The notes below the pieces were generated by a model. That model did no database searches and was not told where the DNA came from. It was given only the letters and a program-made list of their open reading frames with translations. A stretch of DNA of 64,000 bases from positions 414 to 64,413 of the IMG/VR virus record IMGVR_UViG_3300028388_004484; one strand, written 5' to 3'. The position numbers and the translations under genes are program-made. Numbering within the stretch: position 1 is the stretch's first letter; each line of letters starts with the position of its first letter. The DNA is from a virus (taxonomy: Duplodnaviria > Caudoviricetes). Positions 19,927 to 38,992 of the stretch are shown in pieces.

Positions 19927-20017
19927 GTCGGAAAGGGAAATGGCCCTGGTGGAAGTTTATAAGTCCTGTTGCGATAGCCCCCACCTTCCGCTGCCGGTTC
20001 GAATCCGGCTTCCGTCA
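19927..20017 (+). ncRNA. tRNA-like element with an expanded anticodon loop
   Basis: perfect T-arm GCCGG-TTCGAAT-CCGGC; acceptor GTCGGAA/TTCCGTC (6 of 7); AGGG/CCCT and GGTGG/CCACC stems. Confidence 0.4.
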
Positions 20018-20026
20018 CAAATTAAA

Positions 20027-20290
20027 ATGAAAAATATTAATCAATCAAACCCCAGCGATAACATCAAAGGGGCAAAAATTTTCCGCATGGCTACCTATAA
20101 AATAAAAATGACCCTGCCAACACAGTGGGTTATCACAACAGAAGCTTCATCTGAAGAAGAAGCAATTCAAAAAGCATTGAAAGCGGATCCGCCATCACAA
20201 CTTGCTTATCAAGATGACGATGAATGGCAGCCTGACATCATGGAATGGCCGTTTGTTGCTGGAATGACTATTGATGCATATGAAGATTGA
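20027..20290 (+). CDS. hypothetical protein (start probably 20027 or 20087)
   Basis: ITTEASSEEEAIQKA is a common small phage protein motif. Confidence 0.55.
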   Translation: MKNINQSNPSDNIKGAKIFRMATYKIKMTLPTQWVITTEASSEEEAIQKALKADPPSQLAYQDDDEWQPDIMEWPFVAGMTIDAYED

Positions 20291-20317
20291 TTTAAGCAAT
20301 TTAAAAGAAAAATGATT

Positions 20318-20565
20318 ATGATAACAAAAAAAAAGCAGCAAAATTCTGGGCTGATTATTTTGATGCAGATAAGCAAGAAGGATTGCACTGTCACCACATG
20401 ACAATTGATTGCATGGTGCTTTTTGCACAAGAGCAAGTAAAAAACTGCTCTATACCCGTTGTTGTAGGGCGAAGCGAATTAAAGGCTTTTGCTGAATACC
20501 TTGATGAAATACATGGTGGAGAATTTGCAGTAAATGAAATTGATAACTTTATGAAAAGCCTTTGA
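20318..20565 (+). CDS. hypothetical protein spanning the first cassette junction; frameshifted at an A9 run
   Basis: ATG at 20318 needs a -1 shift at 20326-20334 to join the frame ending ...IPVVVGRSELK...MKSL*. Confidence 0.4.
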
Positions 20566-20629
20566 TTGCCTACAACGGCAAGGCATACCCGCAGGCTGGG
20601 ATTTTAACTTAGATATTTAAAAAGATAGA

Positions 20630-20908
20630 ATGATGCAGCTTAATTTATTCACTGAACTATCCAACGAATCATTAAACCCCAGATTGAGGGTATGTAATGT
20701 TGGCGGTAGTGTTTCTTATCGTCAGCGTTTCGGATTAAATAACCCACCTAAAGGAACAATCCTGAGATTGAAATACATGCCAGGGCTTAAATGGTATCTT
20801 CACTGGGAAGATTGTACCGATGGAGAAGATATAGTTCAAGGGTGGTTCGGCACATCTAAAAAAGCTAAAAACTATGCGCAGGAAAATGGTTGGTTGGTTC
20901 TGTCTTAA
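20630..20908 (+). CDS. hypothetical protein starting inside an attC-like loop and reading into cassette 2
   Basis: the junction GTTGGCGGTAGT encodes VGGS; the stop overlaps the inverse core. Confidence 0.6.
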   Translation: MMQLNLFTELSNESLNPRLRVCNVGGSVSYRQRFGLNNPPKGTILRLKYMPGLKWYLHWEDCTDGEDIVQGWFGTSKKAKNYAQENGWLVLS

Positions 20909-21038
20909 CATTACCGCCAACGGTTTGGCTATGTGCCGTTGTGAGGTACGAGCAATGGACATATAGCCGTTGTTATGTACTGGCACGGTGAATTACTGAT
21001 AAGGTTGATTAAATGAACGAAACTAATAATTTTTAAAA

Positions 21039-21824
21039 ATGAGCGATGGCAAATATGCTTTTGAAAAAAGCAAGATAATACAAGGTGATTGCCTTGAAAA
21101 GATGAAAATGATACCCGATAAAAGTATAGACTTTATTTGTTGTGACCTGCCCTATGGTATGACTGCTCCTAAATGGGATGAAATAATACCTGCTGATAAA
21201 CTTTGGGAACAATATAATAGGATAATATCTGAAAATGGAACGATAGCTTTATTTGCTTCACAGCCTTTTACAACCAAGCTAATAAGTAGTAATGAGAAGG
21301 ATTACAGATATGTATGGTATTGGGTAAAAAACCAAGCGACAAACTTCTTCCACGCTAAACGAATGCCTACGAGGAAAGTTGAGGAAGTTGTAATATTTAA
21401 AAAGGGCAAATACTACCCACAAATAACCGAAGGACACATACCAACAAACAGTGCGAAGGGGTGTAGTAATGGCAAAGCCTATCACGGAACAAACACGAGA
21501 GATTATGAAGGGGGTAAAACTACAAGATACCCAACAAACTTGCTTGAATTTAAGTGTGTAGATAATTACAGTAGAATACACTCCGCACAAAAACCTGTTG
21601 AATTGATTGAGTACCTTGTAAGGACATATACTGATGAGTTTGATTTGGTACTTGATAATACGAGTGGAAGCGGAACACTTGCAGAAGCCTGTATAAATAC
21701 GAACCGAAACTTTATAATTATTGAGAAAAACCCAATTGACTTTGAAAAAGGCAAAGAAAGGGTGGGAAAGATTTTTAAAAATTATGGGCTTGACCTACAA
21801 CCTTTATTAGATGAACGAATGTAG
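21039..21824 (+). CDS. N6-adenine/N4-cytosine DNA methyltransferase (beta class), cassette 3
   Basis: IIQGDCLE, DLPYG, HSAQKPVELIEYL, VLDNTSGSGT. Confidence 0.9.
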   Translation: MSDGKYAFEKSKIIQGDCLEKMKMIPDKSIDFICCDLPYGMTAPKWDEIIPADKLWEQYNRIISENGTIALFASQPFTTKLISSNEKDYRYVWYWVKNQATNFFHAKRMPTRKVEEVVIFKKGKYYPQITEGHIPTNSAKGCSNGKAYHGTNTRDYEGGKTTRYPTNLLEFKCVDNYSRIHSAQKPVELIEYLVRTYTDEFDLVLDNTSGSGTLAEACINTNRNFIIIEKNPIDFEKGKERVGKIFKNYGLDLQPLLDERM

Positions 21825-21907
21825 TGCTTGTACATAACGGCTAAGCGCATATGCCGTGCGTAGCATGGTCATATACGTAGTGTTGGGCGCATTTCAAATA
21901 TTACAAT

Positions 21908-22147
21908 ATGACAACATTCGAAAGACTTGCAAATAAAATAAGACGCGATGTAGGTATAGAAACTTATGACCTAAAACGAACCTATGCAAGATCAGCTAAA
22001 GCATCAGGCGCACCCGTTTGGATTGGGAAAATAAAGGGGTCTAATCTTGAGGTCGTGAGCGGATATACCGCCACCGAGTTACTAAAGTCTCCAAAGCTAA
22101 AAAAGGTTAGCGGGTGGTCTTTCGGTGAAATAGAGATCGAGCCTTAA
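21908..22147 (+). CDS. hypothetical protein, cassette 4
   Basis: single ORF bounded by cassette inverted repeats. Confidence 0.7.
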   Translation: MTTFERLANKIRRDVGIETYDLKRTYARSAKASGAPVWIGKIKGSNLEVVSGYTATELLKSPKLKKVSGWSFGEIEIEP

Positions 22148-22253
22148 TTGCGCCCAACGGTTTGGCTATACGCCTGTACTTGTATGGCGTATAGGTGTTG
22201 TTGTAGGTATGTAAGCCTACGGAATTAAAAACGAAAACTTTAAAATAGATACA

Positions 22254-22439
22254 ATGGACGAATTATTGAAACAACTTGGATTTGAATACATGACTGGGTC
22301 AATTTGGAAGCATGAGAAAATAGGTATTATCTCAATTTCTGAGAATGATAAACCAATTGATTTAGTGCAAAAGATATATGATAGGGGCTATGAAGAGTGT
22401 CAAATAATAATAAGGTCAAGTCTTGGCATTAAAGGTTAG
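22254..22439 (+). CDS. hypothetical protein, cassette 5
   Basis: single ORF bounded by cassette inverted repeats. Confidence 0.7.
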   Translation: MDELLKQLGFEYMTGSIWKHEKIGIISISENDKPIDLVQKIYDRGYEECQIIIRSSLGIKG

Positions 22440-22505
22440 TAGGCTTATTACCTACAACGGTTTGGTTATGCACAGAAATTTTAACGACTTAAAATTCGAA
22501 AAAAA

Positions 22506-24145: not shown

Positions 24146-24360
24146 TTCTTACGATTTTCTTACACGCAAAAGTTTAGTTTTTACTAAACTTCTGTCGCTC
24201 AATAATTTTACTTTCCGGTCCTGTAGTTCAAGGGATAGAACGACCTTTACCTTCTTTTGCTTCTTCCTGCCTTTAAAATGCCGTTTTAAATAAGGCCGGA
24301 TCGCTTTTTTGAAGCGGTAGAAAGCAGCAGGGGCTTGTTCGGTTCTTACCTATTTCTTAC
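24146..24360 (+). other. attP: core resembling a tRNA 5' end, flanked by arm-type repeats
   Basis: GGTCCTGTAGTTCAAGGGATAGAACG (24217-24242) looks like a tRNA acceptor plus D arm; TTCTTAC pairs at 24146/24157 and 24343/24354; adjacent to the integrase. Confidence 0.7.
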
Positions 24361-24379
24361 ATTTGAAAAAAAGCAAGAC

Positions 24380-25597
24380 ATGAAAATTAACTTCCGATGG
24401 AACCGGCGGAAGAAAACCGACGGCCGCGGCCGGGCGCCGGTAGAACTCCGAATTTATATTAATGGCCTGGAAAGGTACGTAAATACCGGGATACTTTTAA
24501 AGGCCGGGCAGTGGAACGGGAAAGTGCAGCGGTCGAAAGATCACCCCGAAGCCGCTGCAATAAACCTTCGTTTGTCTGACCTGGAAAATAGGGCCTTCCG
24601 GTTTTATCATTCCCGCCTTTCCGAAGGGCTTCCCCTTTCGGCCGGATCCGTCAAAGATTTTTTAGAAGGGAACATCCAGCGGCCAGAAGAACTTATATCT
24701 TTTATCGAAGATATGATCCGGATGAACCCGAAGGGCCTTTCCGAAGGAACGCTTAAGCAGCGGCGAACGATGGTCGCTTACCTTCGGGACTTCCGGCGCC
24801 AGATCCCTTTTTCGGAAGTCGATGGATATTTTGTTACGGCCTTTGAAGGGTATCTTCGTAAATTTGAAGATAACTACGGGGCAGGCTCGCGAACCCGGGG
24901 CGCAAAAAAACTTTCGGGCAACTACATTTCTTCCCTTCTTTCGATCCTGAAAATTTATACCGGGGAAGCGATGCGGCAAGGCATAATTCGTGCGGATCCC
25001 TTTATCGGAATTAGGATCCAAAAAACTAAAAGCGAACGTACCTACCTGACGATGGAAGAGATTAAAGCCTTTTCCCGGGTAACAATGCCGGGCCGGCGTG
25101 CCCGCTTCGAAGAAAGCATGGATAAATTTTTATTCTGCGCATATACAGGCCTTCGATATTCGGATTTAATTGACCTGAAAGGGAAACATATTAAAACGTC
25201 GATTGGCGGTCTTAGGCTCGTTAAAAAGCCGTTAAAGACAAAACGAGTTGGAACGACGATTAATCTTCCCTTATATTCTCTTTTTTGGGGACGGCCCGAA
25301 GCGATCGTTAAAAAATGGATGGAAGGGAAGCGGCCTAAAGATTCCCTGGCGCCCGGGCTTGACCTTTCAACTTACAATAATCATTTAAATGAGATTGCTC
25401 AAGCTGCCGGGATCCGGAAGCGGGTAACAAGCCATGCGGCCCGGCATACCTTTGCGATGATCCTATTAAACGATTTCCGCTTCCCTGTCGAATACGTCCG
25501 GCGGCTGATGGGGCATTCTGATATTTCGACAACGGAAGTATACGCAAAACTTACCGATCAAAGCTTAGATAGGCTTATCGATTCAGCTTTTGAATAA
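24380..25597 (+). CDS. int: tyrosine integrase (Bacteroidota type, arm-binding N-terminus)
   Basis: GRAPVELRIYING N-terminus; YTGLRYSD, SHAARHTFA, MGHSDISTTEVYA catalytic motifs. Confidence 0.93.
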   Translation: MKINFRWNRRKKTDGRGRAPVELRIYINGLERYVNTGILLKAGQWNGKVQRSKDHPEAAAINLRLSDLENRAFRFYHSRLSEGLPLSAGSVKDFLEGNIQRPEELISFIEDMIRMNPKGLSEGTLKQRRTMVAYLRDFRRQIPFSEVDGYFVTAFEGYLRKFEDNYGAGSRTRGAKKLSGNYISSLLSILKIYTGEAMRQGIIRADPFIGIRIQKTKSERTYLTMEEIKAFSRVTMPGRRARFEESMDKFLFCAYTGLRYSDLIDLKGKHIKTSIGGLRLVKKPLKTKRVGTTINLPLYSLFWGRPEAIVKKWMEGKRPKDSLAPGLDLSTYNNHLNEIAQAAGIRKRVTSHAARHTFAMILLNDFRFPVEYVRRLMGHSDISTTEVYAKLTDQSLDRLIDSAFE

Positions 25598-29982: not shown

Positions 29983-30643
29983 AAATTTGCAACGGAAGGC
30001 GGACCCCTTCGCCCCCTTATTTCCTGACCTTTCGGAAACCGCCGGTAAGGTCATTATTGGATTCGACCCCCACGCTTCCACGCCGGGCGTTGCCGCCTAC
30101 GATGCCAGGGAGGGAAAGGTACACGCCTTCGAAACGATAAAAAAGGCGGACATGAAAGAATGGTTAGAAAAGACGTTATCCGTGCCGGGTTTTTACGAAA
30201 GGGCCTTCGCCCGGGTAGAAATGCCGACCCGACAAACGACCTACGGCCACATTCAGCGTATGACGAAAGCCGCCGGCCGGAATCGCTTTTCTTCGAAGTT
30301 CGAAAAGCAAGTGTTTGGGATAATATGGAATTCGTCGAAGGGCGAAACGATCGCCGAAGATTTTATTGAGATCCTAAAGTCTTGCGCGGTCCCTTTCGAA
30401 GTTGTCCGAAGTGACGACCGTATTAATTGCGAAACGCTAAGATACGCTAAGGGGAAAAGCGGTCCGGCCCTTGAAACTTATTTTTCAACTCGCGCGCTGA
30501 AAACCGGCTTCCGGATCTTTCCTTCGAAGATGAAAGCAGAAACGGCCCGTCATTTTTACGGAACCCGGAAGCCTGGAAATAAAGAAAGTCGTGACGCCCT
30601 ACTTTTATCCTTCCCGGAAGTGATTTATAAAAAATTCGGGTAA
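29963..30643 (+). CDS. RuvC-like resolvase/nuclease
   Basis: IIGFDP...GVAAY, VEMP, ESRDALLL. Confidence 0.6.
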   Translation: MTVEEFRNLQRKADPFAPLFPDLSETAGKVIIGFDPHASTPGVAAYDAREGKVHAFETIKKADMKEWLEKTLSVPGFYERAFARVEMPTRQTTYGHIQRMTKAAGRNRFSSKFEKQVFGIIWNSSKGETIAEDFIEILKSCAVPFEVVRSDDRINCETLRYAKGKSGPALETYFSTRALKTGFRIFPSKMKAETARHFYGTRKPGNKESRDALLLSFPEVIYKKFG

Positions 30644-30826: not shown

Positions 30827-31027
30827 ATGTCGAAGGAATCCGAAAAAGTACTTGATATAATTTTTTTACACCAGGACTTGTGCGCCGAACTTTCTCCGCC
30901 GGAAGGTCAAGAAAGCTTTACCCGTGCCGAACTGATGGCCTGGAATAGAATAATGATCCGGCTTATGGCCGCTAAAGGATACTTGGATTTTAAAAAAATA
31001 CCGGAAAATTACTTCTTCCCATTCTAA
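30827..31027 (+). CDS. hypothetical protein
   Basis: ORF behind a class B promoter. Confidence 0.55.
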   Translation: MSKESEKVLDIIFLHQDLCAELSPPEGQESFTRAELMAWNRIMIRLMAAKGYLDFKKIPENYFFPF

Positions 31028-32071: not shown

Positions 32072-32254
32072 ATGCATCAATTAAGGGACAAAATCGAAAA
32101 GCGGATTTTAAGAATAATCGAAGCCGAAGGCGAAGCCGATTTTGATGGCAAGGAATTTATTCTTTCGGATTCCTTCGGAGTTATCGCCGACAAAATAACC
32201 CGGGCCATATTCGACGGATCCCTTTTTGAAGAAGATGATAGGTGTGAACCTTGA
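32072..32254 (+). CDS. hypothetical protein (start uncertain)
   Basis: may begin at ATG 31998 if there is a homopolymer indel. Confidence 0.4.
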   Translation: MHQLRDKIEKRILRIIEAEGEADFDGKEFILSDSFGVIADKITRAIFDGSLFEEDDRCEP

Positions 32255-32296
32255 AAATTGACAAAGTGGCCGTCCTGGCCGTATAAACCAAAAGCA

Positions 32297-37819: not shown

Positions 37820-38992
37820 ATGAGGCGAAGAAAAGAAATAGAAAAAAATGTCTTTGAAGCAACAAAGGACCGGATCCGTTACCTTTATTCTCGCTTTGAT
37901 AACGTGGTCGTTTCTTTTTCGGGCGGGAAAGATTCGACGGCCGCGCTGCATATTACCCGGGAAGTGGCGAAGGAGTTGGGCCGCGGCCCGGTTCATGTCG
38001 TTTTCTTTGATGAAGAGGCTATTCACCCGCCGACTATCGAATATGTCGAAAGGGTCCGCAGGGAACCAGACGTAAAACTTGAATGGTATTGCCTGCCCCT
38101 TCAAAAAGTAAACGCCTGTTCTACAAAAAACCCCTATTGGTATCCGTGGAATCCTGAAAAAAAGGACCTATGGGTGCGCCCGCTTCCGGAAGATGTTATT
38201 ACGGATCATCCGCGCTTTAAGAAAGAACTTTCCTTCCAGGAGTTTTCGGAAGTCCTATTTTACGATATTCCGGAAAGCTTTGTTTTTGTTACCGGGGTCC
38301 GGGCGCAGGAATCCTACCGGCGGCAGCAGATCGTTTTAGCTAAAAAGAACGATAATTATATTTCTAGGCTTCGAAAAAATGTCGCACACGCTCACCCGCT
38401 TTACGACTGGAAAAGCGAAGATGTTTGGCGCCTCGTTACCGAAACCGGGATCGACTACAATAAGACCTACGATATTTTAAATAAAACGAAGCTATACAAT
38501 AGTTTGCTTTTCCAGCGTGTCGCGCCGCCTTACGGCCAGGAATCGATTCAGAATCTTTGGTTTTACGCCGAATGCTGGCCGGAAATGTGGCATAAGATGT
38601 TAAACCGCGTCCCCGGGGTAGCGACGGCGTGGAGATACGCGAAAACGGAACTTTATGGCGTCGGGGATTTTACGAAGCCCGAAGAATTGACATGGAAGCA
38701 GTACTTAAATGTTATCGTAAAAAGGTACGGGAATAAGGAACGGAAGATTATTCGGAGAAATATTAATGATATAATAAAGAAGCATTACGATAAAACAGAT
38801 TTAGCGATTCCGGAAGAAAGCAACCATCCGCTTACCGGCGTATGCTGGAAAGACCTTTGCAAAATTGCAACTAGGGGCGATCTAAAAGGCCGGGCCGCGA
38901 ACAACTTTGATCTTAAGGCGATCCGGGTCCGGGAAAAGTTGGGAATTGAATCATACGAAGAAGCGTTGAAAATTTATGGAAAAAAGAAGTAA
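37820..38992 (+). CDS. PAPS-reductase-like PP-loop protein (IbrA/YbdN-like)
   Basis: SFSGGKDS, FFDEEA, GVRAQESYRR, PLYDW...DVW, QRVAPPY. Confidence 0.88.
   Translation: MRRRKEIEKNVFEATKDRIRYLYSRFDNVVVSFSGGKDSTAALHITREVAKELGRGPVHVVFFDEEAIHPPTIEYVERVRREPDVKLEWYCLPLQKVNACSTKNPYWYPWNPEKKDLWVRPLPEDVITDHPRFKKELSFQEFSEVLFYDIPESFVFVTGVRAQESYRRQQIVLAKKNDNYISRLRKNVAHAHPLYDWKSEDVWRLVTETGIDYNKTYDILNKTKLYNSLLFQRVAPPYGQESIQNLWFYAECWPEMWHKMLNRVPGVATAWRYAKTELYGVGDFTKPEELTWKQYLNVIVKRYGNKERKIIRRNINDIIKKHYDKTDLAIPEESNHPLTGVCWKDLCKIATRGDLKGRAANNFDLKAIRVREKLGIESYEEALKIYGKKK

Follow-up and report, generated by a model that had tools for sequence, protein, structure and literature searches.

Introduction

Integrons are the classic bacterial device for gene capture and reshuffling, and to our knowledge they were long thought to be rare in Bacteroidota and nearly absent from phages. 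Here we analyzed an island at 20.46-22.48 kb of a 64,000-nucleotide stretch of DNA from a Caudoviricetes virus (IMG/VR record IMGVR_UViG_3300028388_004484, positions 414 to 64,413; the whole stretch is hereafter called the window). The island is very likely an integron-type cassette array without an integrase of its own, similar to a cluster of attC sites lacking integrases (CALIN), and its sites would fall in an attC family common to many phages of Bacteroidota, marine and otherwise, and to host arrays; our confidence is the same for the mobile unit, enzyme, and role proposed below. An earlier note, made from the letters of the window, had suggested an integron-like array in a phage without the integron integrase IntI.

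Phage CALINs have been described by Qi, Rajabal, Ghaly, Tetu and Gillings (2023, Front Microbiol 14:1091391; PMC9892861), who found 17 in 10,705 phage genomes, a frequency called 'not high'. One of them lies in the Polaribacter phage P12002L, with two predicted attC sites and two methyltransferases in 'divergent directions'. According to section 3.4 of that paper, IntI1 recombines the bottom strand of one P12002L attC into attI1; this site may or may not be among the matches of our covariance model R1. As portrayed in its passages on these elements, phage CALINs resemble the island in having attC-type sites, small co-oriented genes, a phage genome without IntI, and orphan DNA methyltransferase cargo. 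As a kind, phage cassette arrays are already published (2023), and the window is a further case. In contrast, the reversed polarity, the AAC-side breakpoint and mobile unit, and the Xer-like recombinase reported below do not feature in those passages, nor did we find a description of them elsewhere in the literature, although the supplements of the paper may hold more.

Reviews count Bacteroidetes/Bacteroidota among integron carriers, and IntegronFinder 2.0 reported just a single complete integron in Bacteroidetes. For Flavobacteria or Bacteroidota, our literature searches on the site family and its recombinase yielded nothing more specific than general remarks that the phylum has integrons. 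In sedentary chromosomal integrons, IntI cuts the folded bottom strand inside the AAC, between A and C (Nivina et al. 2016, NAR 44:7792, PMC5027507). So far as that article sets them out, their attC sites share with ours an AAC/GTT R box, an unpaired central spacer, an imperfect L-box hairpin, and a variable terminal loop. Further shared traits are a 5' end complementary to the cassette's own 3' inverse core, breakage within the 5' AAC of whichever strand folds better, and stop codons in the site. They differ in having IntI, an attI site, a Pc promoter, and an R box of 7 bp, whereas the window has no IntI, apparently neither attI nor Pc, and R boxes of 10 bp.

Promoter-early stem-loop (PeSL) modules in the hyperplastic regions of T4-type phages, reportedly described by Arbiol and colleagues in 2010, are said to flank small variable accessory genes with stem-loops thought to mediate modular shuffling. 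PeSLs act via homologous recombination and carry a promoter; they are not known to have an AAC/GTT R box, own-arm complementarity, a dedicated tyrosine recombinase, or sharing with host arrays, all of which are found for the sites here. Integrative mobile elements exploiting Xer (IMEXs), such as CTX phage, depend on Xer and dif: a Xer-type recombinase that they do not encode acts on a folded single-stranded hairpin. IMEXs integrate as a whole element at chromosomal dif, whereas here many tandem sites each mark off one gene, and the recombinase, a separate paralogue linked to the arrays, carries an additional N-terminal domain of ~100 aa.

Results and discussion

Five putative cassettes in head-to-tail order

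The window record is complete (64.4 kb, with direct terminal repeats), and every long open reading frame (ORF) lies on the + strand. The sites (E0 to E5) and units of the island are as follows.

20448..20470, + strand: E0, left boundary; right half-site only, with L'-like CTCTATACCC, spacer GTT, GTT 20461, and arm GTAGGGC
20461..20576, + strand: unit 1, GTTGTAGG at 20461 … CCTACAAC at 20569-76; no family match
20574..20701, + strand: E1, long attC-like site; AAC-GGCAAGG, stem 20584-20604 / 20674-20694, TAAT, GTT
20630..20908, + strand: 92-aa ORF of unit 2; starts in the E1 loop and runs through GTT 20699; no family match
20919..20974, + strand: E2, attC-like site; AAC-GGTTT-GGCTATGTGCC…GGACATATAGCC-GTT-GTT; model R1 72.5 bits, E 9e-17; fold z -3.1
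21039..21824, + strand: cargo of unit 3, orphan N6_N4 DNA methyltransferase, 261 aa; PF01555 E 3e-21, phrog_67 E 4e-66
21836..21884, + strand: E3, attC-like site; model R1 36.3 bits, E 4e-7; hairpin fold
21908..22147, + strand: cargo of unit 4, 79-aa protein without assigned function; two metagenomic homologues, 77% and 71% identity
22156..22202, + strand: E4, attC-like site; model R1 50.1 bits, E 8e-11; fold z -2.9, top strand
22254..22439, + strand: cargo of unit 5, 61-aa protein without assigned function; pair GTTGTAGG… at 22200 / …CCTACAAC at 22458
22456..22475, + strand: E5, right boundary and array end; AAC-GGTTTG, then directly GTTATGCACAG; model R1 19.5 bits, E 0.011

All five inverted GTT…/…AAC pairs pointed out in the earlier note were recovered at the coordinates it gives. 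Arms of 13-15 nt occur in unit 2 (20699-20713 / 20907-20921, 15 nt, 93%), unit 3 (20972-20986 / 21824-21838, 15 nt, 87%), and unit 4 (21882-21894 / 22146-22158, 13 nt, 92%). As that note had also observed, the stop codon of each of the five units falls within the inverse core or immediately ahead of it (TGA 20563, TAA 20906, TAG 21822, TAA 22145, and TAG 22437). Unit 1 encodes the C-terminal part of an ORF begun upstream (in-frame ATG 20398, TTG 20383; stop 20563-20565). The thrice-recurring AAC-GGTTTGGYTAT of the note corresponds to AACGGTTTGGYTAT, which has exactly three copies in 64 kb, each within the island.

AACGG opens all five junctions. E1-E4 continue with a stem, 3-4 nt, and GTT, which bears out the described order of AAC, hairpin, and GTT in the first four. 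The last, E5, was aligned to model R1 with 43 hairpin positions deleted and may be either a site that lost its hairpin or a left half-site. E1 is supported by AACGG, an inverted repeat (I2; 21 nt, 81%), a fold z of -2.0, and a heuristic scan, and its loop contains the ATG at 20630 of the next ORF. E0 shares a direct repeat (D14) with the right half of E4; model R1 gives no match there, and no AAC or L'' half matching E0 was detected upstream. The inner parts of the window sites are 42-50 nt long (122 nt in E1), and E2-type sites have one additional base on the 3' arm. The total length of attC sites ranges roughly from 57 to 141 nt.

Single perfect 8-nt GTTx/xAAC pairs within 1.2 kb number 40 in the window and are hence weak evidence alone; they could suggest that the inverted repeats are chance products of AT-rich DNA. 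We rejected this explanation, to which we assign practically no probability, because a tiled head-to-tail chain of five pairs appeared in 1/1000 Markov-1 nulls and 0/500 island-composition nulls, three arms are 13-15 nt long, model matches are confined to the island, and the own-arm rule is repeated in 16 other loci (see below). Using the rest of the window as a negative control, we ran model R1 with filters off on both strands of the 64 kb and obtained four matches at E<=0.011, all in the island, the next having E 1.1. No matching family was found by an Rfam search of the island. Full sites number three within these 2 kb, next to a long one and a truncated one, and the island is a CALIN (at least two clustered attC sites, no integron integrase nearby) if attC membership is accepted.

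Two side observations concern the left end of the array. In the open frame across the first GTT (20305-20565), the earliest ATG is that at 20398; another ATG, at 20313, is out of frame and sits a short distance ahead of a nine-A run (20326-20334), which could reflect a frameshift, a slippery tract, or an assembly error. An ORF just upstream (19940-20290) holds two more GTTx/xAAC pairs, 19968/20139 (13 nt, 2 mismatches) and 20129/20325 (10 nt, 1 mismatch), which may be older cassette remnants or chance, and the covariance model finds no site there.

A family of structured sites in viral contigs

An exact two-part pattern, AACGGTTTGGYTAT-N20-50-TATAGC-N4-GTT, occurs in 30 IMG/VR viral contigs. 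Covariance model R1, built from 35 sites of this family, gave 126 matches spread over 38 sources, of which nearly all are viral contigs. Sites lie on one strand per locus almost always, the exception being one weak opposite-strand match in contig L032. In L032, at least 17 sites are packed into 13 kb, and the array of L139 contains 14, compared with the two predicted P12002L sites in the published passages on that phage (PMC9892861). The AAC and GTT triplets are both present in 119/126 model matches; inner parts measure 38-119 nt, to which two 10-nt arms are added. All aligned sites have an unpaired central spacer that is asymmetric between the arms, with 5-6 nt (GGTTT-type) after AAC and 3-4 nt (NNNT) ahead of GTT. 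A purine follows GTT in 31/31 pattern matches, and the next positions are not consistently RRY. Three motif-matched IMG/VR loci share one common hairpin, while the sequences before TACAAC and after GTTA are unrelated.

The hairpin is supported by covariation. In alignment A3, which was fitted to the model, inflating pair counts and favoring structure, 92.6% of cells are paired versus 74.5% after shuffling (0/500 shuffles reach the observed value) and 23-52% with slid partners. Double-sided changes number 252 versus 87 in shuffled data, and 7/9 hairpin pairs covary. Integron attC sites bear extrahelical bases on the arm facing the AAC of the recombinogenic strand; here, most sites instead have a conserved G·T at one stem position (87 GU, 27 AU, 2 GC), so that the modeled strand folds better than its complement.

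The short pattern CAACGGTTTGGYTAT alone gave at least 118 single matches in IMG/VR. A full hairpin was found by regular expression in nine of them, two being the window copies and seven lying in other loci. We had considered CAACGGTTTGGYTAT matches as a chance or negative control and dropped this use, since about two dozen of 100 such loci carry significant model matches.

Some members of the family have features of their own. Long-loop sites (76-122 nt; L032 1659, L139 4376, and window 20574-20701) often enclose the start codon of the downstream ORF and encode part of a protein inside the recombination site, in one case a lipoprotein-like signal peptide. The site count of L032 is far above that of published phage examples. 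L032 and L125 are 71-kb IMG/VR contigs, each rated 20% complete, which implies phages of ~350 kb. A junction from L127 had no match in a search against cultured phages. In P12002L (KR136259), our matches lie at 30001-30063, 30902-30962, 32216-32288, 38028-38097, and 38872-38943.

Cassette starts are often complementary to their own ends

Integron cassettes carry at their 5' end a complement of their own 3' inverse core, and we looked for this signature between consecutive sites after removing duplicate loci. Own-arm complementarity of at least 8 nt, counting GTT, was found in 35/73 consecutive site pairs and in 31/39 at spacing <600 nt, versus 8/113 for the two arms of one junction and 494/18,976 (2.6%) for random pairs. 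It is intact in 5/5 window units and present in 32/70 non-window pairs from 16 other loci. GTT plus 7 nt make up the complementary segment, whose end coincides with the stop codon, in many cases the TAA within TAAC. Together with the covarying attC anatomy, these counts uphold the integron cassette geometry suggested in the earlier note, including the match of each unit's end to its own core.

Inverted repeats and subterminal hairpins flanking each gene are also expected of small transposable elements, either like miniature inverted-repeat transposable elements (MITEs) and insertion sequences (IS) with terminal inverted repeats, or of the IS200/IS605 type moved by an HUH transposase. Such an origin is very improbable. 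MITE and IS elements have constant terminal inverted repeats, whereas here the arms differ in every cassette and only GTT/AAC is constant, and a sequence-specific transposase would not recognize them. Furthermore, the units abut head to tail with one shared hairpin and no target duplications, the enzyme beside related arrays is a tyrosine recombinase, and family searches of the window found no transposase gene in the island or its flanks (carriers were not searched for HUH/DDE enzymes).

Cassette gain and loss in Polaribacter phages

The related cultured Polaribacter phages P12002L and P12002S carry sites homologous to those of the window. Their backbones are 99% identical, and their cassette content differs by whole cassettes. 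The methyltransferase of the window and the product of P12002L gene 0038 share 43% amino acid identity. The site upstream of this P12002L/S gene is ~80% identical to E2 (82% for the upstream hairpin), whereas the downstream junction is only 21% identical.

Comparing the two phages, we found 4/5 breakpoints of indels or replacements either at AACG(T) itself or no more than ~14 nt past it. Three of the five events have boundaries at AACG(T), one is a crossover ~10 nt further, and the fifth has no relation to the sites. In P12002S, an additional methyltransferase is inserted as hairpin, GTT, gene, and …AAC. Among 383 high-scoring segment pairs between unrelated loci, homology sets in 3-6 nt ahead of the AAC end in 308 and extends at least 12 nt past GTT in 273. 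These breakpoints and homology extents indicate that the phage hairpin belongs to the gene downstream and that the breakpoint is AAC. On these alignments, cassettes in phages break at AAC (= G|TT of the other strand), with the hairpin traveling with the downstream gene.

The crossover at G|TT proposed in the earlier note was thus placed at the wrong triplet: the match of each unit to its own core holds, whereas the breakpoint is not at the gene-opening GTT. We rejected for the same reasons a model (Model A) in which crossover occurs at GTT and the hairpin moves with the upstream gene. With the boundary at AAC, ORFs that start in a site loop (e.g. 20630-20908) stay wholly inside one cassette, and the idea that shuffling builds chimeric proteins is unsupported. 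As a separate observation, one event (bp1), a 383-nt insertion in P12002S relative to P12002L, lies at a terminator-like hairpin ~1.2 kb from the right genome end and is unrelated to attC-type sites.

Host arrays, opposite polarity, and an Xer-like recombinase

The two-part pattern was also found in 62 genome contigs, nearly all from Bacteroidota (Polaribacter, Maribacter, Gaetbulibacter, Cyclobacterium, Algoriphagus, and Saprospiraceae). In bacterial contigs of at least 100 kb, the gene strand relative to the site was opposite in 22 cases, the same in 1, and unclear in 3. In viral loci, it was the same in 98, opposite in 1, and unclear in 16. Since the modeled strand folds better, has the breakpoint in its 5' AAC, and is non-coding in bacterial arrays, it corresponds to the canonical bottom strand. 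Phage genes lie on that same strand, which means that phage cassettes are reversed, with the site first and the gene after. By these orientations, the genes of phage cassettes share the predicted recombinogenic strand, each preceded by its site, the reverse of bacterial arrays and of sedentary integrons. A host array captured en bloc would keep bacterial polarity, and the phage pool therefore appears distinct.

We next considered the enzyme. In five genomes, no protein reached the IntI cut-off, and the best partial matches were Xer-like recombinases of 376-408 aa. Their genes lie 1-7 kb from model matches in 5/5 chromosomal regions tested, in constant relative orientation. In the Gaetbulibacter array, a site of ~138 nt occupies every intergenic gap downstream of the recombinase, and the own-arm rule is obeyed. 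The recombinase gene there is co-oriented with the cassettes and adjoined by a half-site (L218 13104-13191), a candidate attI. The array-linked enzyme passed NF040815 ('site-specific tyrosine recombinase/integron integrase'; 249 bits, cut-off 220) and failed TIGR02249 (IntI; 214 bits, cut-off 265), leaving positions 180-242 of the latter model unmatched. Its best solved relatives are XerC-like, XerA, and IntI4 proteins, and it has an extra N-terminal domain of the size given above. Its catalytic arginines are 92-93 aa apart, which, judged against XerD and IntI1, we take to mean that the IntI-specific domain is absent. Compared with the IntI of sedentary integrons, the enzyme beside the homologous host arrays would thus be Xer-like and without the IntI-specific additional domain, judging by this arginine spacing and the unmatched segment.

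Homologues of the array-linked recombinase were detected in 4/5 further genomes, one of them a Polaribacter metagenome-assembled genome (MAG). They were present in 5/62 bacterial loci of 8 kb and in none of the viral loci searched alongside. Only 1/34 carrier virus records has a tyrosine recombinase of any kind; this phage enzyme (270 aa) is 41% identical to that of Gaetbulibacter and directly follows its array. In the window, a tblastn search with array recombinases found no array-type enzyme. The window has one recombinase, listed here for context.

24335..25597, + strand: phage tyrosine integrase; Arm-DNA-bind_5, SAM_5, and Phage_integrase domains; Bacteroidota-type

This gene sits 1.9 kb downstream of the island. 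Its product scores 71 bits to NF040815, versus 249 for the array-linked enzyme, and 43 bits to TIGR02249 (cut-off 265), in agreement with the claim that the window has no IntI. It is unlikely to be the cassette recombinase in view of the low NF040815 score, the negative tblastn search, and the lack of tyrosine recombinases in most carriers. The suggestion that cassettes are moved by a host or unrecognized recombinase fits the adjacency of Xer-like genes to this site family in chromosomes.

The polarity and recombinase data also bear on whether the hairpins could be regulatory RNA or DNA elements (terminators, RNA-processing sites, or PeSL-like modules) between genes that are swapped by homologous recombination. 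Conservation of the hairpin together with the following 5' leader across unrelated phages would suit such elements, as would the conserved G·U-type wobble, by which the coding-strand transcript folds better than its complement, the P12002L/S crossover inside a repeat rather than at AAC, and the 33/34 carrier records without a tyrosine recombinase. We nevertheless consider this explanation improbable. In bacterial arrays the element is on the non-coding strand (the 22 opposite cases above), and it is thus not tied to sense transcripts. Regulatory elements would give no role to cassette-specific 10-bp pairing between the start and end of a cassette, the island hairpins lack the T-runs of the backbone terminators, and a dedicated recombinase adjoins the sites in hosts and one phage. 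Moreover, IntI1 recombines a P12002L site, according to section 3.4 of the phage CALIN paper (PMC9892861).

Several observations on host contigs are worth recording. A few pattern matches came from bins labeled Thalassovita, Scalinduaceae, Desulfohalobiaceae, Viridibacillus arvi, Mariprofundus, Lysobacterales, Desulfobacterales, and Calditrichales (L157, L160, L162, L165, L190, L196, L202, and L208); these may be mis-binned contigs or indicate a wider host range. In Gaetbulibacter aestuarii (L218 6666-8411), one gap has two attC-like sites and an opposite-strand 321-aa ORF resembling an inserted transposase, and an almost identical 300-nt spacer recurs at L218 1604-2178. The cargo of bacterial arrays includes a GNAT acetyltransferase, a beta-lactamase-fold protein, a CAAX protease, and DUF6653. 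In the environmental flavobacterium Maribacter litoralis (L189 310-1985), the array cargo combines a beta-lactamase-fold protein with a GNAT acetyltransferase, typical integron cassette functions.

Proposed mechanism and state of the array

The anatomy, family, covariation, end complementarity, breakpoints, and recombinase adjacency in hosts are observed directly, and from them we infer a chemistry, an enzyme identity, and a present-day activity in this phage. A site consists of a cassette-specific 7-nt arm plus AAC, an unpaired spacer of 5-6 nt, an imperfect hairpin with a variable loop, a spacer of 3-4 nt, and GTT plus the next arm. The mobile unit would run from one AA|C to the next and comprise the hairpin, the GTT arm, a 5' leader, the gene, and an arm' ending in AA. 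In the circular form, pairing of the two arms would frame the hairpin with a 10-bp R box. A tyrosine recombinase would then cleave, in its 5' AAC, the strand that folds, in phages the coding strand. Exchange may be strand-specific and single-stranded at AA|C, with replication resolving the product as in integrons. The enzyme is most likely Xer-like without the IntI insertion, with a gene that adjoins host arrays and is also carried by a few phages. As the present phage does not encode it, cassettes would be gained and lost only with an enzyme supplied by the host or by a co-infecting phage.

Several points weigh against an integron-type array. E1 was missed by model R1, and the sites at both array ends are defective. 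R boxes match RYYYAAC/GTTRRRY only loosely, with GTTGGGC/GCCCAAC as the only full match in the window, and the covariation counts come from the model-fitted alignment. Own-arm complementarity fails in some cassettes, e.g. the P12002 methyltransferase (GTTACCTG…TTGCTAAC). The P12002L/S crossover bp2 lies ~10 nt inside the left hairpin arm and not at AA|C, and ordinary recombination between repeats thus also acts here. Finally, no close relatives of this phage were found that could show cassette turnover: the 16 kb around the island had no nucleotide match among 50,697 phage records, matches in phages and plasmids were at the methyltransferase level only, and the primase/polymerase protein of the window had no relatives in IMG/VR.

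The defective ends and the undetected E1 mean that the array could be a decaying relic. In that case, a piece of an array would have been caught once by illegitimate recombination and would now be inherited without shuffling in this lineage. The half or hairpin-less sites at both ends, the divergent E1, the absence of an array-type recombinase from the window, a GC content of 0.36-0.40 within 20.3-22.5 kb versus ~0.47 in the backbone, and the lack of relatives to display turnover all fit this account. On balance, we regard it as unlikely, though clearly less so than a regulatory origin. The phage-type polarity, reversed in chromosomes, speaks against simple capture of a host array; the three internal sites retain E<=4e-7, and none of the five own-arm pairs is broken; and cassettes are gained and lost in the closest cultured carriers.

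Cargo and biological meaning

The island carries the tail of an upstream-starting ORF, a 92-aa ORF, an N6_N4 DNA methyltransferase, and proteins of 79 and 61 aa. In profile family searches of window ORFs, only the methyltransferase had family matches (PF01555 and phrog_67), in line with the methyltransferase cargo reported in the earlier note. An alignment-based search with the 79-aa protein found no related loci in viral or metagenome contigs. Replication genes flank the island, encoding a replication initiator, a primase/polymerase, a single-stranded DNA-binding protein (SSB), and an excisionase-like protein. Among ten larger cassette ORFs of other viral arrays, hand-picked from the 45 longest, six encode DNA methyltransferases (C5, N6_N4, and Dam) and one an RNA ligase, and P12002L and P12002S carry several further methyltransferases. 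As the recognizable cargo is dominated by orphan DNA methyltransferases, the array is, on these family matches, probably an exchangeable store of anti-restriction and other accessory genes.

A broader possibility, for which we hold the chances to be slightly short of even, is that Bacteroidota phages keep their own pool of reversed cassettes, separate from that of their hosts and using one attC and enzyme family, as an actively exchanged, methyltransferase-rich counter-defense locus in an IntI-independent lineage. The site family is common in uncultured Bacteroidota phages, and the host arrays adjoin an enzyme that standard integron finders would not call IntI. The Polaribacter phages P12002L and P12002S provide a culturable test system that is already at hand. 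If such a pool exists, the opposed polarities of phage and host cassettes would inform the unsolved question of how cassettes arise or come by their attC site, and phages would have a dedicated site-specific route for swapping anti-restriction and accessory genes.

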